This document shows, piece after piece, positions 1 through 21,484 of a DNA stretch of 32,010 nt (its first letter is position 1; every line of letters begins with the position of its first letter). Origin of the DNA: Folioceros fuciformis (lineage: Eukaryota); assembly GCA_049999805.1 (NCBI GenBank), contig JBNGIO010002906.1, positions 1-32,010 of the forward strand, given 5' to 3'. Below the pieces are notes generated by a model. The model searched no databases. It was not told the origin of the DNA and saw only the letters and a list, made by a program, of their open reading frames with translations. Made by a program: the position numbers and the translations under genes.

Positions 1-81
1 ATCCCCCCACCTTTCCTCTACAACACTCCCTCACAAATCCAAAAAAAAGAAAACCTATCCTTTCCCAAGGGTCTATTCAGC

Positions 82-1612: not shown

Positions 1613-3208
1613 ATGACTAAAGCCTTAAATGGCCCTCACGGTGCCGATTGGAAGGCCGCCATCAAATCTGAATATGACAGCCTGATCCAGAATGGCACCT
1701 GGAAGCTTGAACCATTGCCACCAGGGAGAAAGGCGGTTACCTGTAAGTGGGTCTTTAAGACCAAGCTCAACCCTGATGGTTCTACTACAAGGTACAAGGC
1801 CAGGTTAATGGCTCGTGGATTCACGCAGCGACCAGGTCTAGATTACCATGATACCTTTTTGGTAGTTGTTAGGTTCACCTCAGTCCGTGTCCTCCTTGCC
1901 TTCGTAGCACAGAACGACCTCACAATCCATCATATGGACGTGAAGACAGCTTTCCTGCACGGAGAATTAGAGGAGGATGTGTATATGCAACAACATGAGG
2001 GTCATGTAGATACGAAACACCCTAGTCATGTCTGCAAGCTCATAAAAACAATATACGGCCTTAAGCAAGCTCCAAGGGCATGGTTCCAGAAGTTCAGCAC
2101 ATTTCTCAAGTCATTAGGGTTCAAAGAAAGCGATGCAGACTCGAATGTTTACCTTTGCACTGATGGGGATATGTTTGTCATCATAGCCCTCTATGTTGAT
2201 GATGCTATGCTAATAAGTAACAGCCCTGGAACTCTTCTACCAAAGGTCAAGGGTCTGTTGAGTAAACATTTTGAAATAACAGACCTTGGTGTCATCCGGT
2301 TCTTCTTGGGAGTGCAAGTGTTGCTTGTTCTAGAGAAAGGGTCAGTACTGCTGCACCAAGCACACTATGTAGACCTGATGCTCAGGACATTCAACATCGA
2401 GGACGCAAAGCCGGTCAGCACACCGATGGCCACTGGGACACGACTGTCCAAGTTGGACTGTCCAAAAACTGAGGAAGAAAGGGCCACCATGCTGGCAGTC
2501 CCCTACAGGAGGTTCGTGGGATTTGCCCTGTATATGTCAACAAAAACGAGGTTTGACTTGAGCCAGCCTTGAGGCATTCTTGCCCAGTTTGTTGAGGACC
2601 CTGGCAGCATTCATTGGATAGCAGGAAAGCGGGTAATGAGATACCTCAAAGGGACTAGAAATTATGGACTTCAATATCGCAAGGACCCAACAGCCACTAC
2701 ATTGTTTCTGCAAGGCTACACTGATGCCGACTTGGGAGGAGACCCAGACACAAGAAGGTCAGTCTCTGCTTACTGTTTTACCCTTGCTGGAGCTGCAATT
2801 TCTTGGCAATCGAAGAAGCAGACCTTCGTCAGCACCTCCACAACGGAAGCAGAATATGGAGCAGCTGCAGAGAGCTGCAAGGAGGCTGTGGCCAATTGAA
2901 GACTTCTGGCAGATATATCCCAAGAGCAAGTTGACCCCACGCCAATGTTCTATGACAACCAGTCGGCACTCCTGCTAGCCAGTAATCCTGTTTACCACAC
3001 ACGTACAAAGCACATAGATTTGCACTTACATTATGTTAGACAGTCCGTCACATGTAGAGAGGTTGTACCCACCTACGTGCCAACCGATGCAAATTATGCC
3101 GATTTGCTCACAAAACCCTTAAGCCGAGAGAGGCATGAATCACATGTTCAGGGTTTAGGTATGGTCGACATGACACCATTTCCATCACATGCTCTGAAGC
3201 CAAGCTAG
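1613..3208 (+). pseudogene. copia A reverse transcriptase and RNase H, interrupted by in-frame stops at 2570 and 2897
   Basis: ORFs 1613-2572, 2636-2899 and 2945-3208 are in one frame with RVT_2 and Ty1/copia RNase H motifs. Confidence 0.95.
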
Positions 3209-3659
3209 GTCAATTCGTGTCATATTCAGATTCTGACCAATCCATATAGGTGCTAGGTCTAGAGTAGGGTTTCCACTACGAGCATTCACAACCAAAGTTG
3301 CTGTCAGATGTCATGTAGACACATTCCTATAGGTACCCTATCATCTGGAAGACTTGCAGCTCTGTGATTGCAAATTACCAGCATTATGAATCAATCCACA
3401 GAAGCAGTAGCTGCCAACATTCCAGACAATGGGGTGCGGAGAAGGACTTACAGTAATGATGGACAGCGACTCCAGACTCGTCCGTGAACAAGCTAACCTT
3501 CAGCATTAGTTCAGGAGTCTCCTGGTTTTGGTACTGAACTGGATGGCCAACGCAAGTTGGTTTCCAGCCACCACAAAAACAAGATAGCAACATCGCGAGG
3601 AGGCCTGTCATAGGCAGTAAGCAAAAGCTGATGCGAGATTAGGTTAGGAACGTGCGCCT

Positions 3660-3668
3660 AAGAGGGAG
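3660..3668 (+). other. Polypurine tract of copia A
   Basis: AAGAGGGAG is immediately followed by TG, downstream of RNase H. Confidence 0.75.
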
Positions 3669-3753
3669 TGTCGAGGGCCTAGGTTTAGCGGCCCCTTAGG
3701 CATTAATATAGTCGCAAGTTTAGCCTGACCTATCAACCACCACCCAACCGACA
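3669..3753 (+). repeat. Putative short (85 bp) 3' LTR of copia A
   Basis: Starts TGTCG right after the PPT and ends CGACA (5-bp inverted termini). The 3' end is inferred because the 5' LTR is not in the window. Confidence 0.5.
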
Positions 3754-3887
3754 TCGGGCATGTCGGTTGAGTCAAGGGACACGTCCCGTCACCTGGACGT
3801 GCCTGCCGAACCTTGTACACCGCTCGCGTGAGCGTAATTCAATTGTCTATTCTGCTAGCATGCGCGCTCTCTAGATTTCTCTATTCC

Positions 3888-6430
3888 CTACGCGCCATAC
3901 TCTGTTACAGGGTCAGGTTTGAGGTGCTGGTTAGGGTTAAGTACAGCGTCCTCCTCATCAGCCGAATTTGTATTGTCATCTAAAGGAAGGTCTTCTACTG
4001 GTTCACCCGTGTCAACTGTAGGGTTAGGACCAATGATAGGGGGAACCTTGACAGTGCCATCTACTTCCTCATCTATAGGGAAGGTGACAGTGTCAAGATT
4101 GTCCTCTCCAGCTACTCCCTCTGAAGAGTTGGGAGGTGTGAGGTTGGTAGTCATTGCGTGCAAAGGTTCTATAAAAGTGACACTGCGTGCAAGGACCATT
4201 GATCGGGTGTCAAGATTATAGAGTTTATACGCTTTCACATGTTTGTTGTATCCCACGAAAAAGGAGACTTTGAGCTCGGTCTTCTAACTTGCGTTTTTCT
4301 ACAGGGATATAGGCCTTCGAAGGCCTTTGATCCAAATACTCGGAGATGGAGCAAGCTTAGTTTCCTATGCCAGATTACCTCATACAGGGTCTGTCCAGTG
4401 ACAGAGCTGGTGAGTATCCTGTTGAGTATATACGTACATGGCTATAACTACAGCTTCTGCCCAATACTCTTGAGGTAAGTTAGCATAGAGTAGCATGCTC
4501 CTAGTCATCCCTAGCAGTGTCTGGTTTTTTCTTTCGACAACGCCATTCTGTTGCTGGGTATATGGGACAATAAGCTGCCTCTGTATGCCTTGTTCTTGGA
4601 GATAGTCGTCAAAAGCATTATTGACGAACTCTGTCCCATTGTCGTTGCGCAAGACTTTAAGGAGACATCTAGATTGTCTTTGCGTAATTGGAAGCCACTC
4701 CTTGAAGTGCATAAGGGTATCACTTTTTAGTTGCATAGGTATAGTCCAAGAATACCGATTGAAGTCGTCTGTAAGGGTTAAGTAGTACAGGGTTCCACCC
4801 AAAGACGGCTCATGGATCTTGCTTGAGATATCAGCATGTACAAGAGCAAGGACAATCTTTGCTCTGTGTGCAGCTTTGGGGAATGGTAACTCCTTCTATT
4901 TGGCGAGGATGTACGATTCACAGATCCGAAGGTCCCTAAAACAAGCAGGTAGGGGTTCTTTGTGACAGCCTATCCGTGCCATGTCAATGAGTTTATGTTG
5001 TTAGCATGACCTAGACGTGCGTGCCACAGGGATGCTAACCTAGTTGTCTTCATGTTGACAGAAAAGGAGGAGTGACTTACAGGATGAGGAGAACACCTTA
5101 GTTCTAGCCTGTATAAGTCATGGTCGAGGACGCCTCTAAATGCACATGCACCAGAGGAATTCTTCCTGTAAAAGCAGCAGGCATCATCAGCGACACATAT
5201 CTCATACATCCGAAGCTGCATGATCTTGCTCATTGACAGAAGATTCTTGGCCATCTCAGGTACAAATAGAACTTTGGCGACCTTCAGAACTGTGTTGTCA
5301 TCGAGAATGAAGGTACATTCCCCATGCCCTTCAACTTGGAGGCTAGTGTCACTCCTTTCATCACCAAGCAAGACTTTATCCTTCATTTGACACACTGTCA
5401 AACTGGAGAATAAATCTTTGTTGTTGCAGATATGTGCAGTGGCTCCTAAGTCTAGGAACCAGTCATCTCTGCCATACGATGAAGTCCTCATACAGACTGT
5501 GAGTATCTTCACTGTAGCCTTAGAGTTTTCTCCTTTCTCCTTGACAACAACGTTCGCTGACGGTCTTGTGGGTTGTGATCGCTATGGTTCACCACCTTTC
5601 TTCTTGCGGCACTCACATGCCCAATGTCCAGCGGCACCACACCAATTACAGTTGCCTGTCCGCTTGGGCGCTACTGGAGGGAATGGTGCACCATCAGCTC
5701 GACCACCAAGTGCCCTACCCTTCGATTTCTTAAAACGAGAGGTAAGCACTTTGTCAACTTTACTTCTAGATCCACTAGTTGCAAACAGGCGCCCTTGCTC
5801 TTCCTGGAACAGAGCACCAATAACTTCTTCAAGCTTAATGGTGACAGGAGTACCAGCAAAGGATGCCTGATGAGCGGTCCGGATGGGTCCGTTCTATGTG
5901 GAGATAAAGTTTTGGTAGGAGGAAGGGAGGCTGCTCAATAGTTGAGCAACAACCTCTATCTCGTCCATCTTGCAGCCAAGGGCAACTATCTGAGCTCGCA
6001 GGTGGCGGAACTTGGTGACATGAGATGCCACTTTGTCTCCCTCCCTCATACGCAGCCCATAGAATTCCTACTTGGCTGCACACAGAGTAAGAATATTCTG
6101 TACCGCATATGTGGCTACAAGTTGATCCCAGATCTCGGAAGCACTGGTGAGATACTCGACATCAGGTACGAGGTCATCATCTAGGCCTCCAATGAGTAGG
6201 GCAAGTGCTATTGAGTTCAGTTGGTCCCATTTTTGGTTGTCACTAACTGACGGGGCAGGCAATGAGTTGGGGCAGGTTTCTTAAATGTAGCATCGACCAC
6301 GCTCCAAACGCCTCGCGCTACAAGAGTGGACTTCATTTGAACTTTCCAAACTTGGTATCGTGTTCCATTAAATCGGTCCTTGTCCTTGAGCTCATAAGTG
6401 AAGGATGGTCCTGCAAGCCAGGAGCCATGT
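3888..6430 (-). pseudogene. copia B gag-protease-integrase polyprotein, multiple frameshifts and stops
   Basis: ORF fragments 6068-6262, 4970-5512, 4380-4802 and 3888-4256, plus manual translation of 6262-6400 and 5609-5650. The start position is approximate. Confidence 0.88.
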
Positions 6431-7055
6431 GCAAGGTGGTGTTCTGCCCGAACTGTAAGTTGAGATGACCAAGTTGTTTTGTAAGTTGATCTAGAGACGC
6501 TAGGTTCATGCGTAAAGTGACCTTCCTTGAGTTATGACTCGTGGAAAAAGAGACACTAAACACAATGTTGTAGCATTCGTGAGTTTTCTTGCAGGACTTC
6601 TAATACTTGGTTCACAGGGAGGGAGGTGTTGGGTTTATGCCAGGATGCACAGGGGAACCTGGAGCTATCCGTCTGTCCTGACACAGACTCAACACTAATC
6701 CCTCCTAGCAAAGCAAGGATTAGAGGCCAAGGGTTCGGCAATCTCAATCGATCAAAGGGACATATGAAGGTAATCTAGACGCTTCACAATGTGTGCCAGT
6801 CATTAAGTTATAAAATAAACTCTTGATGAAAAGAAGAACCTAACTAAACCGCCGTGTGTCCAGGTCATGTGAAGAGGTGCGACCGGTGGGTTCTGAATTC
6901 TGAGGTCCTGAGATGCAAAGAGTGGCCAACACCCCAACTTGATGACTACTCGAGTGACATGGAAGACGCTAGACGACGCTTCATCAAGCTTGGTGACGTT
7001 TCAACTCTCACTGTCCAGGCGCTTAGCACTCCTGGTGTCTGGAGGAAAAAAAAGG

Positions 7056-7670
7056 TTAGAAGATGCAATCTCCAGCGGGGGGAAAGATCTGGTGTTTTCT
7101 CTCCTCCCATTGGCGCCCAAGCTCAATCTCCTTCATGAGATCAATGATTTCATTGATCTGGTATTTAATCGAACTTGATGTCGTTGTGATTGCTCGTCCT
7201 AATAGGTGATCCAGGTGATCGACTCTGTTCTTGATCGCTTTCTGATTCAACAGCACTACAGATAAGGATTTCTCAACCTTAGTGACGCTTACAAGTTATC
7301 TGGCCACAACGTCCTGATTTCTCTTGTCGCTAGGTGCAGGGTAATCGCATGGTGGTTCAGAGTGGCAGGGGACTTGATAATTCATTGGCCAACTGTGGGG
7401 CAGATCAAAGTCCTGCCTACTTCTAGCCAATCTCTCTCTGCGCAGGCTGTCCACCATATGATTTCTGGCAAGCCGTCCTTGATGTAGGTTGAGTCCTCGT
7501 ATAGAGTGTCAGTCAATGGAGTCCTTCAGCCAGTTGTAGGTGAAATCCTGCTCATGCAGGTCTAGAATTGCTTCTAGGGGAGCGAGATGTGCTTGCGGAG
7601 GAAGGGTTCCTCCACGGCAATTGCGGCTACCATTTCTGTACCACCTACGCGGGCTTTCGCAACTTGGCAT
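7056..7670 (-). pseudogene. Degenerate ~205-codon ORF of unknown function between the PBS and gag of copia B
   Basis: ATG at 7670, about 30 nt after the PBS. One frame runs to the stop at 7056 with only two internal stops (TGA 7509-7511, TAA 7296-7298), both explicable as C-to-T changes. Confidence 0.45.
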
Positions 7671-7700
7671 GATTCATGGAAGACAGAATCCAGAGCAAAC

Positions 7701-7711
7701 CTCTAATACCA
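7701..7711 (-). other. tRNA-Met(i) primer binding site, one mismatch
   Basis: The minus strand reads TGGTATTAGAG versus canonical TGGTATCAGAG, directly after the LTR-terminal CA. Confidence 0.8.
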
Positions 7712-7858
7712 TGTTTATTTTGCAAGGAGTGGAAAAGACAAATTGCATTGTAAAAATGAAATTAATTATGAGTTCACATTTTGGCTCACTATATATGTGA
7801 CTCTAGGTGACGATTCATGTTTCAAACCCTAACTAGCCTTATCCTTTCATATTTAACA
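7712..7858 (-). repeat. 5' LTR of copia B (147 bp)
   Basis: Minus strand TGTTAAATAT...AAATAAACA with TGTT/AACA termini. It abuts the PBS on one side and an interrupted transposase codon on the other, and contains a TATATA-like element. Confidence 0.8.
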
Positions 7859-8340
7859 GTGTGGCCCACAAGCAAAAAACCAACCTTGATTTTTTCAAAC
7901 GTTCCCATATCCACGAACACATTCAGCTATGCAAAGAGCAGTTGGTACTAATTCTCTCTGCATGTGTTGTCTAGTTGTAAATATAGAACCTTTGGCAATA
8001 CGCCAGCATACATATGAATGGCATCCTGGATGATTGATATAGTCAAGTTTGCATTCTTCCACAAGTTTGCTAGATGCAGGTATGCCTTTGCATTGTACAC
8101 ACAGTTGTGCACCATACACCCCACTACATGCACTGCCACTTGACTTTCCTCATATAGGTTCTTGGGCCATCATAAGAAGTGCGGAATTTCTGTCTTCTTG
8201 TGATCCATCCCATCAATTGCTAGCATCATATACTTCCGCGGGTACACATAGCTTTTGCTTCAATGCTTGGACATCTTTGCACGCTCTACGCATAACCAAT
8301 CTCAACGGGCGTCTAGAGCAGTTTGGTACTTCTCTACATG
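7859..8340 (-). pseudogene. Sola-like / DUF7869-type DDE transposase remnant, truncated by the copia B insertion
   Basis: Single-frame translation through stops: ..YPRKYMMLAIDGMDHKKTEIPHF..VHVVGCMVH..NANLTISII..LPKVLYLQLDNTCREN*YQLLFA*LNVFVDMGTFEKIKVGFLLVGH. The IDGMD, LQLDNxxRENK and FLxVGHT motifs match my memory of this family. The upstream extent is uncertain. Confidence 0.65.
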
Positions 8341-9459
8341 CACGACCCCGCATATCAAGTGAATTGAGCATGACTAATCTGCGAGATTCATTTCGTCAAG
8401 CACCAAACTCACGGCAACGACACTTGAGCAAGACCTCGCGACCTTTAAACCCTTCTTTCGGGGATTCTTGGATGGGCCATGTGTGACCACAAAACCTAGG
8501 TATACTTTCCACGAAATGGGTTGAGCAAAAGACCATACCACAAGCACGAAAGCCCACACATAGGGAGGGCGCTGGCCAGCCGGCGCCCACCCTCTATGTG
8601 GGTTGTCATTCACCTTCATATAGCCAGTTGCATAAAGGTCCCCGCTTCCATGATCAAACGCCGGCCGAACGCGGCCCACCCCTAGCCCATTAGCAATTCC
8701 AACATAGGCATATAAGGAGAAAGCAACCCAACTATGCCCTTATCATCCACAAACACTACAGCGATAGTGTAAACGTATGCATGCTAACCATAGTCTACGA
8801 TGTCCATTAGTATGAGGAAATGACCTTTGTTTCAGTCAACAAATGGCAGTGCATACCTTGTTCTACTTTAGTTGATGTATTCTTTATCGTTGCCTTTGAT
8901 CCAGCTGTGGAGTGAAATCTTGTGTCTAAAGACACCGTGTGTTCCACATTCACCCTCTATGTCGTTGTAGTCATATGATTCGCTCCCAAGGGAATGATTT
9001 GTGCCAAGGAACGCTAACTTCTATTAATACTGACCCTTACCTAAGTCATGACTCGCCCCTACTACCTACCATCTCAACTACTACTACCCCCAGTTAGCCC
9101 CGCTACCATGGATCCTACTCTACGACTCCAGTTCCCACTCCACAATCGCGATCGCTGTTTCCGTGACCGGTAGTTGTTTCCACGACTGTGGTGGGACCCA
9201 CCCAAAACCCTAACTAATATTTTTCCAGTAAGAGCCAGGCCTTGGGTTTCCACCATGGGTTTCTATCCCAAGGGCTTCCAGATTCACAGATCTAGCCTTA
9301 TTGGATGCTCTAGACACATGCAAATGCCAATCCTTGGAAAACAAGACCCCGCAAATTTAGCTACACTCCTTCACACACACATGCAAGACTCTCCACACAT
9401 GCAAAACACACAAGAGCTCTGGTTCACACTCATTTCCTACATGCCTGATTCGAAATGTC

Positions 9460-9672
9460 TCCAATCTTCTAGCAATGTTCACAAATCTCCAACAATCCCT
9501 TAGCAATCCTTTACAATCTCCCCCAATCTTCAAAAATCTCCAACAATCTTCAACAATCTCCCATATGCCTAGAAATCTCTTATAAATCTTCCATGAATCA
9601 TCTCCAATCTCTAGCAATCTTGCAGCAATCTCCAGCAATCTTCCACAATCTTCCTCAATCTCTCAGTAATCC
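9460..9672 (+). repeat. Degenerate ~10-bp tandem repeat with a CAATCT core
   Basis: Roughly 20 imperfect units such as caatcttcaa, caatctccag and caatcttcca. Confidence 0.8.
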
Positions 9673-9679
9673 TCTTCAG

Positions 9680-11578
9680 TTAGTTCTTCTCTTCACTCTC
9701 AATCTCTGGGAGAACATAGACAAAATATTCACCAGGTGGGAAGGCGGGGAATTGCTAGAGCAAAAGAAGCATACCACAGTGGGCATTAGCAAAAAAGGGA
9801 AGGGAAAGAGGAGGCCCTTGGATGACTCGAAGCTAGTTGACTTAGGATATGTGAAGCCAAAGGATATGCTAGCCAAGCCTTGGAAGTCTTTCCAAGGCAT
9901 ACCTCCAGAACAATGTAGAAAACAGATATTGATTACGACAACGGAAAAGGTGTTGGCAGGCATTATTGACTTGATGGGTATGGCTGATGACATAATGTTG
10001 CATAAGAAATTTCACTTCATTCAAGTTGCGATAGCGAAGCATCTAGGGTGCAAGTTGTTTGAGGAAGTACGGGCAGAGTATCCAAAGCACTCCATGGACA
10101 ACATGTTGGCAAGGTTTCAGACCCAATTCGCTGGAAAGGTGAGCAATTTCATTCATGCTTAATGATAGATTTGGTGGGCAGAGGGTGCATTGGGTTGAGG
10201 GCGTCGACTGGCCGGTGCCCTCAACCAGGTGCACCCTCTACCCAGGTTGTGTGTGGCAGGGCAGTGGGGTAAGGGTGCCTATTGGCCGGCAACTTGAGCC
10301 TATCCTTTCGAATTTCTAATCGGGCACTAGCGTAAGGGCTTTGCATTCATGCTGTCGTTTGTTGATAATGTGCAACAACTTAAAGATGTGGATAACTCGT
10401 CACGCCTGCCGGAAGCTTTCCAACAATTCATTTTTGAAGTTAACAACTGGAAGGGTCTGGAGGAAGAGCAGCGGGTTCTCGCAGACAAGGATTTACAGGA
10501 AGGAATGTTCAACTTCGCAATCCCTGGAGCAAATACTCAAGTACAAAATGAGGTGGTGAGTAGGAGTGTTATGGAGATGAAAGGATTTCTCTGACCAAGG
10601 AAATACTCCCTCCTCGTTATGGATGTCCCAAGAGGCTATGACATGGGCCCTATGGACAAGCGTTTAGATGAGCCCATGATAAGCACAATGTTGGAAAGTT
10701 TTGTTGAGAAGACAACTTGTGATGAATATCGGTTGGTTGTTATGCATGGAGTGGAGGGTGCGCATGCAATTAGGCATGCCCTTCGGAAATGGGGTCGGGC
10801 TGAAGGCATGATCTCCTTTGTTTGGGACACGGCGAACATGTCCAATGACAAGGGCGGATAAGAGACTGAGGAGTACATCACAATGGCTTGGGGTGCAAAA
10901 GAGGGCAGTGGAAAAGATAGTGTTCATGCTTCCTAGAGTATCCCGTCCACCATTCAACAGAGGAGATTTGTCATACCCCATGACTCGGTTGTGAAGAAGT
11001 AGATCTACTTGACGCACAATAAATGTGTGGTATGCCTGCATCATTGACCACTGGGTCTTATGATGAAACTTGTGCTTGCATTCTCCGAGGGAGGAGATTG
11101 GATCGTGGATGCTTGCTTTGGTAGTGGGACAATAACACTGGCAAGGCTGCTGTCGGGCAGGAATTGCATCGCAGTTGAGGTGGACTTGTGTTGCTCGGCT
11201 TACATACCTCAACGAATCAATGGCCACAAGGTTCTTCTTGATGCGGAAGAGAAACTAATGTTTGATGTGCATCGCAGGGGCCCGTTGCAATTTTGGACAA
11301 GAGAAATTTGCATCAACGATACGAATAGCTTGAAAGCGCAAGTTGTGCCTTTCAACCGACAAAGCACTCAACACCCTATCAGTTCGTCTGAGGAAGGAGG
11401 TCAAATGACGTAGGAGGTGGTTTGGCCAACACTGCAAGCTCGCGATAAGGCCAAGGAAGATGGTGATTTTGTGGATAAGGAGTTGGAAGAGATTGACAAC
11501 TTCGACGCAAACGACCAACAAAGGCTTGCAAGAGTTACTGCAATGTATGACTCCGTGTCTGCGAATGAGGGTCATTAG
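9680..11578 (+). pseudogene. Beta-class N4-cytosine/N6-adenine DNA methyltransferase-like gene; predicted exons ~9680-10138 and 10331-11578, with six internal stops and no frameshift
   Basis: One frame runs 10331-11578: YSLLVMDVPRG (motif IV position, 10622-10633), ..FVWD..EEYITMAW.., then H*PLGLMMKLVLAFSEGGDWIVDACFGSGT..LARLLSGRNCIAVEVD (motif X/I/II, 11042-11185). Predicted phase-0 intron 10139-10330 (AAG|GTGAGC ... CTAAT ... TAG|). The 5' end is uncertain. Confidence 0.75.
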
Positions 11579-11867
11579 AGTTTATTAGTTTAAGTGTTTT
11601 TGTGCTGATCGAGCCCAGCGTAGATGCAACTATTGAACAATTAAGGAGTAAGGGGTGCCGGTCAGCCGATGCACTCACCATCAGTCGGTGTTATGCATGA
11701 TTAATTAGTGGAAAACTGAGAAAGATTGGTGTGCCCAAGGTGGTGACCCTTTGCACATAATACTATGTAGCTCATTTTGGGAGGGTTAAGATCTAGGACA
11801 TCAAACTTCAGGGCATGTACAAGTGTCCTTCATTATTCAGCCCCTTGCTGCTTTGTGGTGCTCTCTG

Positions 11868-12066
11868 TTGGCGTGCAGGTGTGCACCATGACCACGCTCG
11901 TGCACACTTGTGTGCGCCATGACGGCATTGGCGCTCACAAGTGCCTCAATTAAATAGCTAGCAGGCATTTTAAGCACATAATGGTAAAAAAAAATCCAAA
12001 AAATTAGCAAAAAAACCCAAAAAATCCCGTTTTTTAGGCAATGGCGCACGCAAGTGTGTGCCATGG
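11868..12066. repeat. Cluster of related palindromic motifs (ATGGCGCACACAAGTGTG-like) in both orientations, probably TE subterminal repeats
   Basis: 11898-11920 and 12041-12064 are near reverse complements. Partial copies lie at about 11868-11889 and 11928-11943, and A-tracts lie between the last two copies. Confidence 0.55.
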
Positions 12067-12262
12067 CTTCAAGGGTTTGTAGGTTTTTTTCCCTATTTTT
12101 ACTACTTTTTTGGATTTTATTATGTACCGTACACTAGTTGCACGTAATAGTACTATTTGCTCCTCCTTGCTCAGTTTTTGCCCAGCACACTTAGAGGTAA
12201 TCCTGTATGCATAATAATAATCTAGCTCCCCATCTTCTTCTGAGAATTCTTTCCATTACTCT

Positions 12263-12574
12263 CTAATACTCATGTTTGGATAGTCTCCCTTGTTTGCCCA
12301 AACTCACATTGTCAAAGTGTACATGTCGAGGTGTATTATAAGGTTGCACTTTCAATCCAGTAGGAGTCATTGTCTTCAATCTGACCTTCACCCAATCCTT
12401 CTGAGCTTGCTCCTCTTCTGTCTTAAGTGCATCAATGTCAGTAGCTAGATGCTTGCAGATCATCCTATGGAGAGTCCACTGGCGGCAAGAGTACTTGGTG
12501 GCATGGATCCATTCCCTACCACAATGTATACATTCAACTCCCCTTGTTGCCATCTTAGTGGAGAGTTCCATCAA
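12263..12574 (-). pseudogene. BED zinc-finger-like fragment, possible hAT transposase N-terminus
   Basis: VECIHCGREW..ATK..R..LH...CKH pattern. No transposase core was recognised downstream. Confidence 0.4.
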
Positions 12575-13069
12575 CAGACAACAGTGCCTACAGTCTAGTA
12601 GCTAGATGCCTAGCATGATGACTACGAACTAGGCCAATAGTAGGGCAGTAGCGAGATTGTACAATCCCAAGGGGGGATGGTGAGGCGTCATGGTTTTTAA
12701 TCAAAGAAACTAGACCGCAACTACAACTGAAGCCTTATAGGATTGTAAGCGTAGCAAGCACGAGGAACAGATGTGGCAAGACTTGTCATATTTGCATTCA
12801 AACCCAACTTCACAAGGAACCCGTTTGAGGGTTTAAAGCTTAATTCATGCTTTGCCTATTTCCGATATTCCCCTTTATGCTGATTATTTCAAAGAAGAGG
12901 GTGTACATGAATTAATAGTACAATAAACTTAGGTTGCATACTTAACTATAGTTTCATAATCAATTACAATAGATATTTCAACTCTTGTATATATCATAGT
13001 TTTTCGTTTAATGAAAATAACCACTTTTCTTTTCTCTCGCCGGTTGCTCGTGTGCTTGTGGTCGTTCCC

Positions 13070-13715
13070 CCGCTCACCTTCCCTCGTGTTACATCGTCCA
13101 TGCTTAGAGGCTTTGACGAAAGGAGGAAGGTTTTGACCTACAAGAAGCTTCTCCACATTGATGCCAAAAGCAACGAACATTCTCTGGTGTCTAGCAAAGG
13201 CTTGTCAGCCATAATGTTTTTTATCAACCTCTGTCTCTAGGGAACCGCTTGGGTTTGTTTTAAGTGCTAGTTTAACAAGCTTTTCTAAGGATATCCTGCT
13301 AGATCGGCTGCCTTTAGAACCCATTGTGCATGTAGAATCTTCATTTTACTCATAGGATCCACCAAACCTAGACTACCCAACTGCTTGTATTGGATAATAT
13401 GTTGCCATGCCACCTTATGAGAAAAGGAGACCAGCTCCCTGGACTGACTCCACAAGAAGTTAGTCATAATCTGTTGCAACCTCCTTAAGTCCACCTTATC
13501 AGGAGCCCACAGGAAGAGATAATACCACAGAGAAGCAATCAAAATGTGGTTTATCACCACAATCCTGCCTGCAAGATTAAGGTCCAGTAGTCGTAAGTCG
13601 TTGACTTTCCGGATAAATTGGAGGTAAAGATATTTTCCAATCTCTTCATTCTCATCCTCTTCTTGAAATGGCACACCCAAATACTTGTGAGGGGTAGGCT
13701 CCATAAGTTTCCGAA
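13070..13715 (-). mobile_element. Non-LTR (LINE, L1/Tx1-like) ORF2 fragment, C-terminal to the RT core
   Basis: KYLGVPF..LNLAGRIVVINHIL..LWYY..NFLWS..KVAWQHII..KQLGSLGLVD..LHAQWVLK in ORF 13285-13758. Boundaries are approximate. Confidence 0.85.
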
Positions 13716-13734
13716 CAAGTGAAAGCGTGGGCAC

Positions 13735-15055
13735 TACGTGATTTAACGTCATGAGCACCTTAATGAGATGCTTGCATGTGTGACCTTATGCAACCTAAGA
13801 GCACATACAACATGGCCAATTGCTATTGAGACAGCAGTTGGCCATGTCTAATATAGTATATTAGACACCACATATGTTGTGCTTGCACTAACCTTGCTGC
13901 CCCCAAGAACATACACATTTTGTCCATTGGTGTTGGTAAAGCCACAAAGTTCTTTGGGATCTTAGTGGCCTTGGCCACATCATGTTCTATTACATGTTCC
14001 AATTTACTATTTTGCACAGACCCTTGTTTCTTACACTGTTGTTGGTGTAAAAAATGAACGTCCACCTCATCCACCAAGACATGTCGAAGCCAATCAACCC
14101 ACCTACCTCGAAGAAGTTGCTTGGTGAAGGAAGCTCTTACTTTAAGATGCAAATGGCAAGCTCTGATAGAACTATTGCAATCTTGGCTTGCATGTGGCAC
14201 TGATCAAAGTGCTTTCAACCACATGTGCATGACGTTCCCCCACTATTACTTGATGTACTTGGAAAACGGTGGAAACAAGGGCTCATATTCCGCATAAAGG
14301 GCTGCTAATTTCACCTTGGCTGCCTCCTTGGATATGAATGGTGATCCTCTAAGATACATGTTGTCACCTAGTTTTTGCATGATGTTTGCTCTCGTTTCTA
14401 TGTTCTTCACTTTTTGCAACAAGTTTCTCAGCCATGCACGCAAGACATTCCACATATATGGAAAACCCAACGTGCTGTCACTAAACATATATTTGATAGC
14501 ATTAATCTCTGCTTCAAAATCATCAAATAGGAAAGCATTTGATTACTAAGCTGGGTCCACTGTGGGTGCATAGTTGCGGAGCACTTTGAGCCATTTTGCC
14601 ATAATCAGGCCGTAAACTTCTTTTAAGAGTACCCAAGATACTAGAATGCCGTTCATAAAATTGTTAAACACCAACAAACTTACCTACTGAAAATGCCACT
14701 TGTTTAGTCCAAAAGTGGCAGAATGACATAATTATGGCCCCACTTGACCATCATCCAAAGCATGAATGGTGTTTGCACTCCGAGGACAAAGGTGGCTGGA
14801 GCATGGCTGGAGCAAAGTTAGGCATACAAAGGTTTTCAGGATAGAAAATCAAGTTCTTGTTGACATCCATCCAAAGTCAAACACTCTCCGTATCATTGGT
14901 GTGGAGTTGGTAAGAATGAGAGGCAACATGAGCCTGCATATTTTGAACATCTTTTGAAGTGAGAAAAATATCTCAGGTGAATTTATATCTTGTGTTCCTA
15001 TGACATTTTCCATGAACTTCCTCCTCATAGTCCACCATAATCTGGTGTTTTGGCA
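13735..15055 (-). pseudogene. Mutator-like (MULE) transposase with C-terminal SWIM zinc finger, heavily degenerate
   Basis: Minus-strand fragments in order: DIFLTSKDVQNM..YQLHTND..LWMD..IFY; TFGLNK..LLVFN..ILVSWVL; DDFEAEINAI..F..MWNVLRAWLRNL; HASQDCNSSI..H..LK..RGRWVDWL; C-x-C..GHTCKHLIKV (SWIM). A possible further N-terminal piece lies at about 15720-15840. Confidence 0.75.
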
Positions 15056-16188
15056 CTTGGCATAGTAGATTGTGCTGCAGCTAGCATCTCTTCTCAATGG
15101 AGAGAGCAGGGGCTAGCCTTCTAGGGTGAGCTTCAAGTCCTGTCATGAGCTCTCCATGGCAAAATTCATTAGCAACATCAGTATGATAACTATGTTGAAG
15201 TCTCAATTCCACAATGTCAGGCCTTAGCAGCAACCGAGTAACTACAAATTGAAACTAGCCCCCCTCTTTTTACTAATCTTAGGATGCCTACTACCTGGTC
15301 CAGTTTTTGGCCTTACATCCAGAGCAATAAAAGACCGTGCTGATGTAGCTTCTCCTTGACGGTTTGCTAGCCTGTATTAGCAGTCATAGGTAGCATGTCG
15401 CTGCCTTGAGTAGGTTTAGCATTGTACTTCCTCTGCTCCTTCGCAACCTAATGATGCATCCTACAAAATGAGGTAGGGAAGGAAGAATTTGCTTGCTCAC
15501 CAGCAAAAAAATTAGGAACCTGGTCACCTGGAATATAAGCATGCTTCACTTCTGATAGGGAAAGCTTTCCTTGATGAACACCAATCAGCTAGATCAAATC
15601 TTCCTTGAAAATCGTGCCTGGCTTAGGATTTTGCAAGACAACATAGCATTTTGCACTTGAAATGTGTTAGTAGAATCCGCCATTGTGAATCCACTTGCAC
15701 AATGTTGCGAACATGGATTGGGCAAGACACCTTTAGACATAGCCGTGCAACCAAGACTTCACATGATCAGACATTTGAACGATCACGCTACCATCCTTAA
15801 GTCTACCAGTCGTGCAAAGTGGAATCACGTCGGCTTTAATAGCTTGTAATGGAGCTTATTCCTCATAATGATAGGACTTTGCCGCACATTCATCACGCTC
15901 AAAGTAAGTGCCTGTGTTGCTGAGCACGGTGCCGGATAATGAAATAGGCGGTGTTGCTCGTCGCGAACAGAGAGCGCTTCATTAGGAAGGGAGAGAAGCT
16001 TGATCGGTGTGTTCCAACGGCAGTCAAATCGCACATGTGGTATGGGCTCGTTAAACTTCGGCGACATGGTATGTCTGTATCAGCATTCCATAACTGCGAC
16101 CATACAAATAGGTAACGTTGAAGTTGAAGTAGACACATTTTTCCCCAATGTATAAACGATTTGACAACACCATTGTTCAATTGTGGAT

Positions 16189-16280
16189 ATAGTTTTACTC
16201 AATCCAAAGGAACATTGATAATATGAAGTTTTAACAATAGTTTTACTCAGTCCAAAGGAACATTGATAATATGTAGTTTT
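16189..16280. repeat. Tandem duplication, 48-bp period, 2 copies
   Basis: ATAGTTTTACTCARTCCAAAGGAACATTGATAATATGWAGTTTT starts at 16189 and again at 16237. Confidence 0.9.
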
Positions 16281-16400
16281 GTTAAAAAGACACAGCTTCA
16301 TGCCAGTTTTTCTGTTTACCAAAGGACAGTCTCTTAACACTAAAGAAGGGGGTCTCCACTCCCACCCTAAGACTATTTCCCGATTGTGGCCACAGCCCGC

Positions 16401-16481
16401 ATATCAACCGACCCCAGGCCGAACATGAACCGGCCCCACATCGCACATGAACCGGCCCCGGCCAGTACATGAACCGGGCCC
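16401..16481. repeat. Tandem repeat, 22-bp period, 4 copies of an ACATGAACCGGCCCC core
   Basis: Cores at 16401 (degenerate), 16423, 16445 and 16467. Confidence 0.85.
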
Positions 16482-16612
16482 AGCCCGCAGCTCAAACGGC
16501 TCCGCAATGGCGGTGACCAATCCGTATTTCGTGCTGCACGGGACCAAAGGCTTGCATTGTACGAGGTCGGTGTTGTTCTGTGCATTTGGATCGAGCGCTA
16601 AATTACCACTCA

Positions 16613-18268
16613 TCATTCCCACTCAACAGTTGCAGGGGGCTTGGAGGTGATGTCATAAACAATGCGGTTGATGCCTCTCACTTTGTTGCAGATTTCTGAA
16701 GAGACCTGCGCCAAAAATTTGGATTCAAAATGGAACCAATTGGCGGTCATCCCATCCTCGCTGGTGATCGCCCTCAGCGCCACGGCGTTGGAGAGCGTCC
16801 TCCGGTCTCCTTGCACTCCCACCGTCTTCACAGGCAGGAACACGGCAAATGCCTGCCATATTTGATCATACAGCCCGGCCTCCTTTATGCAGTTGATGAA
16901 AATCTCATCAGCATCGCGAAGCATCTCCAGCGCACCTCCAGCAGTCACGTCTCCCAAGATGCGCACCGCCAGGCCCGGTCCCGGAAACGGGTGGCGTTTG
17001 AGGAAGTTCTCCGGAACATTCAGCAGCGCTCCCAGCTTTCGAACCTCATCCTTGAACAACAACTTCAGGGGCTCCACCAGCTTCAGCTTCATATCTTTGG
17101 GCAGACCCCCCACATTGTGATGACTCTTGATGGTATGGGAGTGCATCTTCCCGCTGCCCGGCGGCGGGCACGACTCTATCACATCCGGGTAAAGAGTCCC
17201 CTGTACCAGATACCTCGGCTTCCTCCCAACTTTCAATTCCAAAGCCGACGAGAATTCGTCGAACACCGCAATGAACTCGGCGCCGATGATCTTCCGCTTC
17301 CTCTCCGGATCCGTCACTCCCGCCAGCTTGCTCAAAAACTGGTGGCTTGCGTCCACGCAGGTAACCGGGAGATGGAGGTCGGCCTGGAACGTTCCCATCA
17401 CCCGCTCCTGCTCCTTGTACCTCAGCAGCCCGTTGTCCACAAACACACAGTGCAGCCGATCTCCCAGAGCCCTGTGCGTGAGCGTGGCCGCCACGGTGGA
17501 ATCCACACCCCCCGACAAGGCGCAGATTGCGTGATCCTCCGGACCCACGCTTTCCCTGATCAACGATATCTGCTCCTGCAACACATCCTCCAGCTTCCAG
17601 TCCGCCTCCACTCCACAGACCTCCAGTAGCAGGTACCGCAGCGTCTCCAACCCCCGCTCACTATGGCTCACCTCGGGGTGGTACTGCAGCCCGAAGATAT
17701 CTCGCTCCGCATGCTCGATCGCCGCAACCCCGCCCTGCAAACTCCTGGCCACAACCCTAAAACCTGCGGGCAGCTTCACAGCCTCGTCCCCATGGCTCAT
17801 CCACACCTCTTGCCGTCCCCCGCTCTCCACCCTCCCGTACAGCCTCGACCCCTGCTCCGGCACGATGGTCATCGGCCCGTACTCCTGGCTCTTCCCCTGG
17901 CGCACCTCGCCTCCCAGCTCCCTCACGATCAGCTGCAGCCCGTAGCAAATCCCGAGCACAGCCACCCCCTGCTCCGCCGTGTACTCAAAAAACCCCTCCG
18001 GCACCGTCGGCGCCCCATCCTCGTGCACCGAATGAGGCCCCCCCGACAGCACGATCACCCCCGGCGCGTATGACTTGATCACATCCAACGAATTGCCCGC
18101 CGCGATGCAGAACGAGCAGATCGCCAGCTCCCGGATCCGCCTGGTGATGAGATGAGTGTACTGGGACCCGAAGTCTATCACCACGACCGTGTTCCCCCCG
18201 TGCTTCCGCGCTTCTTCCTGTGGCTGCGGGTTGACGGCCGGCAGCGATTCCAGCCCGTTCGCCGCCAT
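16613..18268 (-). CDS. GMPS: GMP synthase (glutamine-hydrolysing), single-exon CDS, 551 aa from the first ATG
   Basis: IDFGSQYT, LSGGP, LGICYG (catalytic Cys), WMSHGD, QYHPEV, ALSGGVDS PP-loop, IKSHHNVGG, RHPFPGPGL and C-terminal YDITSKPPATVEWE. The ORF track starts at GTG 18313; the first ATG is at 18268. Confidence 0.97.
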   Translation of the reverse strand: MAANGLESLPAVNPQPQEEARKHGGNTVVVIDFGSQYTHLITRRIRELAICSFCIAAGNSLDVIKSYAPGVIVLSGGPHSVHEDGAPTVPEGFFEYTAEQGVAVLGICYGLQLIVRELGGEVRQGKSQEYGPMTIVPEQGSRLYGRVESGGRQEVWMSHGDEAVKLPAGFRVVARSLQGGVAAIEHAERDIFGLQYHPEVSHSERGLETLRYLLLEVCGVEADWKLEDVLQEQISLIRESVGPEDHAICALSGGVDSTVAATLTHRALGDRLHCVFVDNGLLRYKEQERVMGTFQADLHLPVTCVDASHQFLSKLAGVTDPERKRKIIGAEFIAVFDEFSSALELKVGRKPRYLVQGTLYPDVIESCPPPGSGKMHSHTIKSHHNVGGLPKDMKLKLVEPLKLLFKDEVRKLGALLNVPENFLKRHPFPGPGLAVRILGDVTAGGALEMLRDADEIFINCIKEAGLYDQIWQAFAVFLPVKTVGVQGDRRTLSNAVALRAITSEDGMTANWFHFESKFLAQVSSEICNKVRGINRIVYDITSKPPATVEWE

Positions 18269-18847
18269 AACTGGAGCTCCACAGCGAGCTCCGAGTCCGG
18301 CTTTCTTCCCCACCTTTTACACGACTCGAGTCCACTTACGGCCCGACGACGGATTTCGAAGACGGGGACCATACCGGGAGCCCTCAACCCTAATCGTGGT
18401 TGACATGCCGGGGGTTAGCCTAACCTCCGAGGCAGGTTATGGGGATTGCCTTAGAAGCAGGCAGTGAAGTTGGCAGTGTGGTGCTTGCCTTGGCTGCCCA
18501 GGCAGTGGGGTGCAGTGCGGTGCGGAGAGCCAGGAGCAGCGCTGCTGGCTCCAAAGGGCTGCTGATCAGAGCGAGCGGAGCGTGGGGCGGAGTGGCGCGG
18601 ATCCGGCGGAAGGGAGCTCGGCGCTGTCAGGGACGCGATCGGACCATGCCGATGTGGAGGGATGGAATCTGAGAAATCGCGGGATCGCGTGGGCGTGATC
18701 TCGGCGCTGCGGGCCCGCTGCTGCGGGCCTTTGGGATCTGTAGGCCTGCTGGCGCACTGGAGTGTTGTGCCAGGGGGGTGATCCGTGTGCGGAGTGGTCT
18801 GGTGAGGGGATCGAGGGAGAGGGAGCGGGAGCTCTGCGGCGGGCGCC
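18269..18847. promoter_or_regulatory. GC/CpG-rich divergent promoter and 5' UTR region shared by GMPS and AP-1 gamma
   Basis: Head-to-head ATGs about 580 bp apart, with a telo-box-like AACCCTAAT at 18386-18394. Confidence 0.55.
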
Positions 18848-21484
18848 ATGGGGAGCAGGTTGCGGGACATGATCCGCTCCGTTCGGGCATGTAAGACTGC
18901 CGCGCAGGAGCGGGCAGTGATCGCCAAGGAATGTGCGGTGCTCAGGAATGCGTTCAAGGAGAATGATCAAGACTACAGACATCGGAATGTTGCCAAGCTC
19001 ATGTTCATCCATATGCTAGGTTATCCCACGCACTTTGGTCAAATGGAGTGCCTGAAGCTCATTGCCACGTCCGGGTTTCCGGAGAAGCGGATAGGATATC
19101 TGGGGCTCATGCTGCTTCTTGATGAGAGGCAGGAGGTGCTGATGTTGGTCACCAATTCGTTGAAGAATGATCTGAGCCACGCCAACCAGTTCATCGTGGG
19201 GCTTGCGTTGTGTGCGCTGGGGAATATTTGTACCGCTGAAATGGCACGTGACCTTGCTCCCGAGGTAGAGAGGCTGTTGCACAGCAGCAACCCTTACATC
19301 CGGAAGAAGGCAGCTCTGTGCTCGGTGCGGGTAATCAGGAAGGTACCTGACCTGGTGGAGTACTTCACCCCAGGGGCTACGGGGCTTCTGTCGGAGAAGC
19401 ATCATGGAGTGCTGCTAGCGGGTGTGAAGCTTGCCACCGAGCTTTGCCTGGCGAGCCCCACAGCTTTGGAGCACTTCAGGAAGCAGACGGCGTCGGTTAT
19501 TCGGGTTCTCAAGAACTATTTAGTCAGTGGTTACGCGCCGGAGTTCGATGTGGGTGGGATTACGGATCCGTTTCTACAGGTTAGGATTCTGAGATTGCTT
19601 CGCCTTCTTGGAGAAGGTGACCCGGAGTGCAGCGATATCATGAGTGACATCCTGGCCCAGGTTGCCACAAATACGGAGTCCAATAAAAATGCAGGAAATG
19701 CTGTTCTGTACGAGTGTGTGCAGACGATCATGGGTATAGAAGCCATCGGAGGGTTGCGTGTGCTTGCCATCAACATATTGGGGAAGTTCCTGTCCAACCG
19801 GGACAACAACATCCGGTATGTGGCCCTCAACACTCTGGTCAATGTTGTGTCCGTGGATACCCAGGCTGTCCAGCGGCATCGTGCCACCATAGTGGAATGT
19901 GTGAAGGACTCGGATGTTTCGATCCGAAGAAGAGCGCTGGATCTGGTCTATGCTCTTGTGAACGAGAACAATATCATCACGCTCTCTAAGGAGCTCTTGG
20001 AGTACCTGAAGGTGAGCGACACCGAGTTCAAGGGTGATCTCACTGCCAAAATATGCTCCCTTGTCCAGAAGTATGCTCCTGATAAAGTGTGGTATATTGA
20101 CCACATGATAAAAGTGATGGTGGAGGCAGGTGCCTATGTGAAGGATGAAGTGGTTAGAGCTCTGGTGGTACTTATCACCAATGCACCTGATCTTCACAGA
20201 TATTCGGTCAGATCTTTATATCAAGCCTTCCACAGCTGGAGAGGACAGGAAAGTCTGGCACAAGTGACTGTCTGGTGCATCGGGGAGTATGGGGAAATGC
20301 TTGTCAATCATCACGCTGAACTGCGAGAAGACCATACAACAGTGACGGAATCTGATGCTGTGGATGTTCTGGAGTCAGTCTTGAAGGATGCTCGAGTCAG
20401 TTCTGCAACGTATGCCTATGCATTGACAGCACTACTCAAGCTCGCCTCCAGACTTCCATCTTGTGCAGGGCGCATTAAAGGGTTGATTGGACAGTACAAG
20501 GGAAGTTTAATTCTGGAATTGCAGCAGCGGTCCATAGAGTTTGGGGCAATTTTGAGCAAGCATGAGAAGATAAAGGGTGCCCTTCTCGAGAGGATGCCTG
20601 TGCTAGACGAAGCAGCTTATTCTATCAAACAGGGCGACTCAGGCGACTATGGTAGCCCAGATGGGATACCAAACTTATTGGGAGAAGTGACTACGAATGG
20701 GCCTAGCAAGGCAGTGCCTGTGGTTCCTCTCATGGATCTTGTTGACTTGAATGGTGAGGATGAGACACCACAGCCACAAGGGCGATCAGCTGCAGACAGT
20801 TTGTTGTTGGATCTTCTGGGGGCTGGGCCGGCAAGCACTCTGAATGCCATGTCTTCTCCAGTGCATGCTTCAGTGGGTGGTGCAGACTTGCTTCTAGACA
20901 TCCTGTCTCTGGACACGCCTGCTGTTGCGACTGTAACCTCTGCAAATCATCACTCCAACAACAACTCATCATCTTTGCTTCAGAATGTTGGCACAGTACC
21001 TGCTAAGACGACTTCCATTGAGGATGTATTGGGTAGTAGTCAGCACAGCTTAACAGCTGGCATGGCTGATCTCTTGGGTGGCGATGATATGTTTGGGCCC
21101 CCGGTTTCAGCTGTTGCCCTCTCTTTTCCTTCAATTGTAGCTTTCAAGAGCCCTTCCTTGCAAGTTACTTTTGATTTCACAAAAGAGTCTTCAAGCCCGC
21201 GAAGTACAACAGTCCGGGCGACGTACACAAATTCTAGTTCGATATCTTACAGTGACTTCATATTTCAGGCTGCTGTTCCGAAGTTTATGCAGTTGCAACT
21301 TGAGCCTGCCAGTGGAAGTGTACTCCCAGCCTCCGGTGAGGGGAGTTTAGTGCAGGTGATCAAAGTGACAAATTCTTTGCATGGCCAAAAACCTTTGGCT
21401 ATGAAGCTTAAAATATGTTACAAGCGCAATGGCCAAGATGTCGTGGAACAGGGACAGGTCAGCAATTTTCCTGCTGGGTTGTAG
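18848..21484 (+). CDS. AP1G: AP-1 complex subunit gamma (gamma-adaptin), single-exon CDS, 878 aa
   Basis: RLRDMIRSVRACKTAAQER, RHRNVAKLMFIHMLGYPTHFGQMECLKL, ITDPFLQVRILRLLRLLG, ELQQRSIEF, a low-complexity hinge and the ear domain FIFQAAVPKFMQLQL..GQVSNFP. Confidence 0.97.
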   Translation: MGSRLRDMIRSVRACKTAAQERAVIAKECAVLRNAFKENDQDYRHRNVAKLMFIHMLGYPTHFGQMECLKLIATSGFPEKRIGYLGLMLLLDERQEVLMLVTNSLKNDLSHANQFIVGLALCALGNICTAEMARDLAPEVERLLHSSNPYIRKKAALCSVRVIRKVPDLVEYFTPGATGLLSEKHHGVLLAGVKLATELCLASPTALEHFRKQTASVIRVLKNYLVSGYAPEFDVGGITDPFLQVRILRLLRLLGEGDPECSDIMSDILAQVATNTESNKNAGNAVLYECVQTIMGIEAIGGLRVLAINILGKFLSNRDNNIRYVALNTLVNVVSVDTQAVQRHRATIVECVKDSDVSIRRRALDLVYALVNENNIITLSKELLEYLKVSDTEFKGDLTAKICSLVQKYAPDKVWYIDHMIKVMVEAGAYVKDEVVRALVVLITNAPDLHRYSVRSLYQAFHSWRGQESLAQVTVWCIGEYGEMLVNHHAELREDHTTVTESDAVDVLESVLKDARVSSATYAYALTALLKLASRLPSCAGRIKGLIGQYKGSLILELQQRSIEFGAILSKHEKIKGALLERMPVLDEAAYSIKQGDSGDYGSPDGIPNLLGEVTTNGPSKAVPVVPLMDLVDLNGEDETPQPQGRSAADSLLLDLLGAGPASTLNAMSSPVHASVGGADLLLDILSLDTPAVATVTSANHHSNNNSSSLLQNVGTVPAKTTSIEDVLGSSQHSLTAGMADLLGGDDMFGPPVSAVALSFPSIVAFKSPSLQVTFDFTKESSSPRSTTVRATYTNSSSISYSDFIFQAAVPKFMQLQLEPASGSVLPASGEGSLVQVIKVTNSLHGQKPLAMKLKICYKRNGQDVVEQGQVSNFPAGL

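Follow-up and report, generated by a model that had tools for sequence, protein, structure and literature searches.

A probable dead copy from a family of beta-class amino-methyltransferase genes in Folioceros fuciformis

The N6-adenine methyltransferases CcrM (6pbd), M.BceJIV (8urk), MboIIA (1g60), RsrI (1eg2), and M1.HpyAVI (5hek) share a fold in which the catalytic motif IV precedes motif I, the loop that binds S-adenosylmethionine (SAM). Here we describe a gene related to them at positions 9590-11578 (forward strand) of a contig of Folioceros fuciformis (JBNGIO010002906.1, positions 1-32,010; this whole stretch of 32,010 nt is called the window). With a probability of about 0.8, the gene is a dead copy belonging to a beta-class amino-methyltransferase family. 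Besides the permuted motif order and the fold, the window's family has in common with these enzymes an aspartate that opens motif IV, a QKP ahead of the loop that binds SAM, and the FxGSG sequence of that loop (Foldseek E-values 6.9e-14 to 6.5e-10, profile E-values 2.5e-16 to 1.2e-11, structural Z scores 14.5-17.9). Identity to the N6-adenine structures is, however, 14-19%, and the family differs from them in reading D-x-P-Y-G, with a single proline, and the clade of the window in reading D-[LV]-P-R-G. Unlike CcrM-type enzymes, the family is eukaryotic, carries two extra N-terminal domains and a probable intron, and has no restriction partner.

Related architectures have been reported from phages and eukaryotes. 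Fusions of a ParB fold to an N6_N4 methyltransferase, which also occur in prophages, are reported to be typical of phages (bioRxiv 10.1101/2025.10.10.680097). As in the family described here, a nucleic-acid-related N-terminal domain is followed by the methyltransferase, which matches phrog_67 and phrog_498; unlike in the phage fusions, the window copy is without an N-terminal domain, and that of its family is not demonstrably ParB-like. Bdelloid N4CMT (8s9m/8s9n) and Marchantia MpDN4MT1 are, like the present gene, eukaryotic genes with the bacterial N6_N4_Mtase fold; both write N4-methylcytosine (4mC), and N4CMT has a C-terminal chromodomain and is described as lacking eukaryotic homologues (PMC8885841). 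In contrast to these writers, our family has extra domains that are N-terminal and different and a motif IV that starts with aspartate, and its profile matches N4CMT much more weakly than N6-adenine enzymes. For adenine, the accessible part of a 2015 survey of eukaryotic methylases gives few N6-adenine methyltransferases in land plants and lists no streptophyte clade of this kind (PMC4738411).

Red algae offer the nearest parallel in genomic setting. There, transposons of the Plavaka, Zisupton, and Mutator types carry PF01555 methylases as accessory genes, with a Plavaka case in Bostrychia; the accessory gene PAG2 combines a PF01555 methylase with SET and PAG3 a ParB-like domain with a 2-oxoglutarate (2OG) oxygenase, and tandem repeat arrays lie beside the ParB-like accessory genes (bioRxiv 10.1101/2025.02.11.637652). 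Another red alga, Asparagopsis, has 66 N6_N4_Mtase genes (PMC12115072). A preceding sequence-only reading of the window had called eukaryotic examples rare; the Asparagopsis and Bostrychia genes show that they are less rare than that. Compared by description, PAG2 and the window gene are both eukaryotic PF01555 genes of Archaeplastida with tandem arrays adjoining, and the window gene may share with PAG2 the many, mostly degenerate copies and the DNA-transposon association. Unlike PAG2, the window and the relatives scanned contain no SET domain, and the architecture is another one, in a streptophyte host.

Homology and decay of the methyltransferase exon

The methyltransferase part of the gene comprises the following features.
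10331-11578, forward strand: methyltransferase exon, decayed; 415 codons, six in-frame stops, terminal stop at 11576-11578.
10622-10633, forward strand: motif IV, D-V-P-R (D98 V99 P100 R101 of the read-through P0001), aligned in A1 with D-x-P-[YHR]-G.
11039-11047, forward strand: decayed Y-Q-K of the (N)xYQKP motif, CAT CAT TGA = H-H-stop.
11108-11131, forward strand: motif I, the SAM-binding loop D-A-C-F-G-S-G-T, located by the Pfam PF01555 match and the A1 alignment.

Translation of 10331-11578 gave a single frame of 415 codons plus the final stop, and the six in-frame stops (residues 88, 177, 202, 224, 239, and 361; nt 10592, 10859, 10934, 11000, 11045, and 11411) lie exactly where the sequence-only reading had placed them. 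The peptides that it quoted, LLVMDVPRG, FVWD..EEYITMAW, HH-stop-PLGLMMKLVLAFSEGGDWIVDACFGSGT, and LARLLSGRNCIAVEVD, are all present. For the searches, two read-through proteins were used, P0001 (10331-11578, with X at each stop) and the longer P0002 (9593-11575), together with A1, an alignment of 22 sequences including the window, and A2, a profile built from 13 family members that are either long or incomplete.

By itself, P0001 scores 27.3 bits (E 4.2e-6) against Pfam PF01555 (N6_N4_Mtase), barely over the cutoff of 26.7, and the match covers the motif I part only (residues 239-285, profile positions 166-212 of 221). Against PDB sequences P0001 alone gave weak matches only, and a word-index homologue search with a single methyltransferase sequence gave 0 matches; with the A1 profile, the same kind of search gave P0050 alone from a saturated candidate list. 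A phmmer search with P0002 in 1.84 billion representative proteins found 61 proteins at E <= 1e-3, 15 of them at E <= 1e-10. The best match, a protein of 446 amino acids (E 5.6e-30), aligns over 10373-11356 and thus spans both halves of the enzyme. Such similarity exceeds chance by a wide margin. PF01555 was detected in seven of ten relatives scanned (up to E 7.6e-18, 65.7 bits) and is carried by 9 of 13 long or partial forms. PHROG families of DNA methyltransferases match as well, the Ginkgo relative reaching E 1.5e-27 with phrog_67 and 2.4e-20 with phrog_498.

Searched with A2 in six frames, the window returned one match, at 9590-11272 (profile positions 95-546 of 606, E 1.1e-70), and nothing better than E 0.49 in the other frames. 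This alignment runs as one domain in one frame, in agreement with the earlier statement that the gene has no frameshift. It also moves the gene start: the proposed extent of 10331-11578 holds for the methyltransferase part, but homology begins upstream of it, at about 9590.

In A1, MDVPRG of the window falls into the D-x-P-[YHR]-G column and DACFGSGT into the D-x-x-x-G-S-G-T column; the motif I loop reads C-F-G-S-G-T, and the column of G264 is nearly invariant. D-V-P-R (10622-10633) lies ahead of F-G-S-G-T (within 11108-11131), and the alignment with CcrM has the same order. The A1 profile found CcrM (2.5e-16), M1.HpyAVI (1e-15), M.BceJIV (2e-14), MboIIA (1e-13), and RsrI (1e-11) among PDB sequences, and in this alignment the D-i-P-y-G of the family coincides with DPPY in CcrM. 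Sequence upstream of motif I aligns with the catalytic subdomain, as seen in this column and in the roughly 250 columns aligned by Foldseek.

An AlphaFold model of the window read-through, built with A1 as the alignment, has a mean predicted local distance difference test score (pLDDT) of 69.5, and the means of ten-residue blocks mostly exceed 90 in residues 61-160 and 241-290. Foldseek ranks 1-32 of this model are DNA amino-methyltransferases only (about 250 aligned columns), whereas RNA enzymes such as METTL3 appear only from rank 41. CcrM leads (6.9e-14), followed by M.BceJIV, MboIIA, RsrI, bdelloid N4CMT (8s9m, 1.8e-10), TTHA0409, M1.HpyAVI, and PvuII (8.8e-10). The methyltransferase domain of the Ginkgo relative gave Z 17.9 with M.BceJIV, 17.6 with CcrM, and 16.8 with MboIIA. 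Because amino-methyltransferase profiles match, because the best structural matches are DNA amino-methyltransferases and not RNA, protein, or small-molecule enzymes, and because the catalytic subdomain aligns, the assignment stands, and profile, phmmer, and fold agree that the permuted order is that of a beta-class homologue. The description as a prokaryote-type gene fits the fold, which is of prokaryote and phage type; the gene itself belongs to a eukaryotic multi-domain family with a probable intron. A working member would bind SAM through the F-G-S-G-T loop; a base flipped out of the DNA duplex would enter the D-x-P-x pocket and be methylated at its exocyclic amine.

The window copy is dead and 5'-truncated and cannot make an enzyme, because it has six stops, reads H-H-stop at the place of YQK, and has lost the N-terminal domain of the family, for which (profile positions 1-94) no counterpart was found anywhere in the six-frame window. 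Its terminal branch in a maximum-likelihood tree is also long (1.67, median 0.72), all of which bears out the earlier view of a decayed copy. The tree was computed from 20 of the 22 rows of A1, as P0020 and P0024 were dropped for being too short. The probable RNA run X4 yielded no contig on 9204-12941, which is uninformative either way on expression.

A three-domain family and its genomic setting

Intact relatives of 670-790 amino acids with three domains occur in Chara, Riccia, Adiantum, and Ginkgo. Chara braunii has three members (P0011, P0015, P0021) and so has the liverwort Riccia sorocarpa (P0017, P0022, P0042), and there is one each in the fern Adiantum nelumboides (P0019) and in Ginkgo biloba (P0006). 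P0049 is a transcript assigned to the amoebozoan Clastostelium, from a transcriptome, which can hold foreign sequence. A search of metagenome contigs gave no confirmed locus related to the member P0012. Long relatives begin with an N-terminal domain marked by a GGxH..AR / DHN signature, continue with a helical middle domain, and end with the methyltransferase; the window retains the latter two, in two exons and one frame. Our literature searches found no description of a three-domain streptophyte family, although supplementary files may list such genes, and the family is apparently undescribed. As a side observation, P0015 (1825 amino acids) consists of two complete tandem three-domain units with a long Ala/Pro/Glu-rich linker between them; gene prediction could have merged two neighbouring copies here.

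The GGxH..AR signature had raised the suspicion of a ParB-like N-terminal domain, which the searches did not support. Pfam ParB_N matched none of 13 members at E <= 5. DUF6551 matched once among the 13 (E 0.019). The only leads towards it are language-model look-alike scores of 0.95 for DUF3723, 0.93 for ParB_N clusters, and 0.91 for DUF6551, and a KorB match on the middle domain (see below). In a profile search of the PDB, all matches at E <= 0.01 were methyltransferases, and the weaker ones, among them antibody chains, were due to chance; in a tblastn search of phages with P0012 only residues 534-789, the methyltransferase part, matched (identity 24-29%). The AlphaFold model of the Ginkgo protein of 670 amino acids is poor (mean pLDDT 52, below 50 at the N-terminus). 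No Pfam family matched the middle domain, and its structure matches are weak and helical (DAXX Z 5.6, KorB Z 4.8), within the noise of helical bundles.

Upstream of the methyltransferase exon lie the following features.
9590-10138, forward strand: upstream exon, helical middle domain of the family (family profile positions 95-263).
10139-10330, forward strand: putative phase-0 GT..AG intron of 192 nt with six stops, from splice-site sequences, profile insertion, and the ends of relatives' open reading frames.
10175-10244, no strand: palindrome of 70 nt within the putative intron, with 28-nt arms (86% complementary) around a loop of 14 nt.
9473-9671, no strand: tandem array of 10-bp units (CAATCTCCAA-like), located at the 5' end of the homologous region and further upstream.

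The upstream exon is contained in an open reading frame (9473-10159, forward strand) without a single stop and has homologues of its own (P0007, E 4.2e-17; also P0010, P0019, P0025, P0039, and P0049). The interval 10139-10330 is likely a phase-0 spliceosomal intron, because it is bounded by GT..AG signals (donor AAG|GTGAGC at 10138/10139; a pyrimidine-rich tract leading to the acceptor cactag|CG at 10330/10331), is aligned as an insertion by A2, and coincides with the point where the open reading frames of relatives stop (P0007, P0025) or start (P0003, P0013). Its length of 192 nt keeps the reading frame between the two exons. The 176-nt stretch 10160-10335, folded as DNA, reaches -36.5 kcal/mol (z -3.74, 0 of 200 shuffles as good), and the palindrome may be a small foldback insertion. 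The 10-bp array at the 5' end recalls the arrays of red-algal Plavaka, a resemblance that may or may not matter. Further upstream, 8670-9203 is a very high-copy short repeat, with many loose contig ends at 8931-8997 and a summed contig depth of 1466 in run X1, 899 in run X2, and 38 in X4.

X1 and X2 are DNA runs of one sample, whose contigs were aligned to 6000-22000 of the window at >= 80% likeness. X1 placed 714 contig pieces there, only 103 of them at least 99% alike, and three contigs of this run deviate from the window sequence at positions 10375 and 10393. Summed X1 contig depth is 50-84 over 9738-11873, compared with 7-16 over the neighbouring genes (17214-22000); since such a depth is not a copy number, we claim only that this genome holds several diverged copies of the gene.

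Remains of mobile elements occupy much of the left part of the window.
7858-8157, reverse strand: decayed relic of Pfam DUF7869 (PF25273), 81.2 bits (cutoff 26), E 9.5e-23.
1-2572, forward strand: integrase and RVT_2 (copia), Pfam.
4970-5512, reverse strand: Pol_BBD and gag-pre-integrase (copia), Pfam.
About 5790-6370, reverse strand: Retrotran_gag_2 and DUF4219 (copia), Pfam.

Ty1/copia fragments in both orientations thus fill 1-6400. The DUF7869 relic, 1.4 kb upstream of the gene and on the opposite strand, extends more widely over 7321-8613 (20 stops in 431 codons) and could represent a transposase that once shared one element with the methyltransferase gene. Its pattern D..D-N-x-x-x-E-N / G-H-T may resemble that of DDE transposases. 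No Plavaka or CACTA transposase was detected in the window, and 11500-16400 gave no Pfam match in six frames; a LINE (long interspersed nuclear element) tail at 13288-14542 (reverse strand) had been suspected from a motif, and Pfam found nothing there.

Because the gene exists in diverged copies, lies amid retrotransposon debris, adjoins the DUF7869 relic, and has a precedent in red algae, we lean slightly towards reading it as cargo of a DNA transposon. Several points weigh against this interpretation and against the wider reading of the locus. Repeat searches of the window found no terminal inverted repeats around the unit, we found no published function for DUF7869, and adjacency is what links the relic to the methyltransferase gene. 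The depth excess, as said, does not count copies, and the intron, although likely, is read from splice signals and alignments. Neither Pfam nor the PDB profile nor phage tblastn supports a ParB-like N-terminal domain, and the Pfam score of the window itself is the marginal one given above.

A host origin explains part of these data. The window copy would then be a pseudogene of a non-mobile family, a cellular chromatin- or DNA-modifying enzyme that was duplicated and whose copy degenerated among repeats. The annotation of the Chara, Riccia, Adiantum, and Ginkgo members as normal genes, on long contigs of chromosomal DNA, fits such an origin, as do the likely spliceosomal intron and the lack of terminal repeats. 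We nevertheless regard a host gene as unlikely, though worth keeping in view, given that the named taxa are patchy and possibly include an amoebozoan, that the genome holds several diverged copies and Chara P0015 two tandem full units, that assemblies contain many fragmentary open reading frames, and that a transposase-like relic adjoins the window copy.

The arginine of motif IV and the target base

The canonical form of motif IV is (D/S)-P-P-(Y/F/W). The window keeps D and the second P, but has V for the first P and R for the aromatic residue. The sequence-only reading had noted DVPR in place of DPPY in a copy that it took to be decayed. The letters are as it gave them; decay does not explain them, for D-[LV]-P-R-G occurs in six of the six clade members that cover motif IV (P0003, P0004, P0005, P0013, P0024, and the window). 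P0016, also of this clade, starts after motif IV and was left out of the count. Outside the clade the aromatic position is occupied by Tyr in 12 of the 14 sequences that reach it, by His in one (Ginkgo), and by Ser in one. The Arg clade is supported at 100/98 and the window is nested inside it at 95/92. Judged by this alignment and tree, D-V-P-R is a conserved trait of the clade and not a product of decay.

YQKP and the GSG loop are intact in all four of the remaining clade members whose sequence extends over both, at a mutual identity of 34-55%. That intact clade members retain both motifs at such divergence suggests selection for a SAM-dependent function. Methyltransferase activity of the clade is nevertheless unproven, because arginine sits where all characterised enzymes of the class have an aromatic residue. 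The entire clade, intact members included, could accordingly consist of pseudo-enzymes that bind DNA or SAM only, as suggested by the replacement of the base-stacking aromatic residue in all six members, where 12 of 14 sequences outside have Tyr, and by the precedent of METTL14, an inactive paralogue in the related MT-A70 group (PMC4738411). We consider this doubtful, since intact clade members, at only 34-55% identity to one another, have preserved YQKP, the GSG loop, and both D and P in motif IV, as expected of a working SAM-dependent enzyme.

For working members of the family, N6 of adenine seems a somewhat better candidate for the target than N4 of cytosine. Beta-class enzymes that methylate N4 of cytosine are known to begin motif IV with S. 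This feature of 4mC writers (TSPPY / SPPY) is absent here, the first residue of motif IV being D in the window and in every aligned member of A1. The A1 profile matched N6-adenine enzymes at E 2.5e-16 to 1.2e-11, and the N4-cytosine enzymes N4CMT at 3.8e-8 and PvuII at 1.1e-4. It counts against the adenine assignment that it leans on the motif and on profile scores, and that Z scores do not separate the classes (PvuII 15.3 and N4CMT 14.6, N6-adenine enzymes 15.4-17.9).

A kinship with the 4mC writers MpDN4MT1 and N4CMT, by which working members would deposit N4-methylcytosine, appears improbable. The Pfam domain and the permuted fold are the same, N4CMT and PvuII are among the good Foldseek matches (1.8e-10 and 8.8e-10), and among the plants that have the family are the liverwort Riccia and others whose sperm swim. 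Motif IV of Marchantia MpDN4MT1, however, is TSPPY (bioRxiv 10.1101/2021.02.12.428880), as opposed to the aspartate of every member aligned here, and the A1 profile rates N6-adenine enzymes, CcrM at their head, at least eight orders of magnitude above N4CMT. Bacterial or phage DNA, present as contamination of the assembly or through very recent transfer, would agree with the phage-family matches of the methyltransferase domain (phrog_67 E 1.5e-27 in the Ginkgo relative), but is highly improbable, as the closest relatives with a named source are all eukaryotic and two eukaryote-only domains are shared with the window, as phage enzymes are 24-29% identical in the methyltransferase domain only, and as the copy has decayed in place between copia fragments and expressed plant genes.

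Neighbouring genes and implications for the family

To the right of the methyltransferase gene, the window contains four further genes or open reading frames. GMP synthase (16613-18313, reverse strand, 566 amino acids) and AP-1 gamma adaptin (18848-21484, forward strand, 878 amino acids) are single uninterrupted open reading frames, and contigs of X4 are colinear with the window over 16254-18330, 18487-20560, and 20531-22000 with 0 differences. Both genes therefore seem to be intronless, an uncommon state for an adaptin gene in streptophytes. Proteins of bryophytes and Selaginella share 65-67% identity with the adaptin, and zygnematophyte proteins 71% over part of it. A RING-H2 finger protein (23200-24483, reverse strand) and a type I metacaspase with an LSD1 zinc finger (25966-27078, forward strand) are likewise encoded by single open reading frames. 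An exact look-up of three neighbouring gene products gave no match.

A third run of the same sample as X1 and X2, X3, differs from 6000-22000 by C>T in 606 places and G>A in 412, with 9-71 places for each other kind of change, and looks like a bisulfite- or enzyme-converted library. Its raw reads, if available, could be used to call cytosine methylation here.

Dedicated writers of N6-methyladenine (6mA) and 4mC in land plants and their algal relatives are still disputed. Against this background, the dead copy in the window matters only as a marker for a family whose members in Chara, Riccia, Adiantum, and Ginkgo appear to be intact. A far-reaching and, taken as a whole, rather unlikely proposal is that these genes form an undescribed eukaryotic amino-methyltransferase family, apart from MT-A70 and the known 4mC writers, that has spread as cargo of mobile elements and whose Arg clade, with its SAM site kept under selection, is a new catalytic variant or has a new target. 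Its proteins would join a beta-class methyltransferase to a helical domain that binds DNA and to a domain that is possibly ParB-like, and would occur in stoneworts, liverworts, ferns, Ginkgo, and possibly amoebae. If it were true, the enzymes could mark the DNA of their own element or the host genome with 6mA. The change from an aromatic residue to Arg provides a clear test of the role of the base-stacking residue in motif IV. If the gene is indeed cargo, the green lineage would join the pattern seen in red algae, in which transposons carry their own DNA-modifying enzymes.

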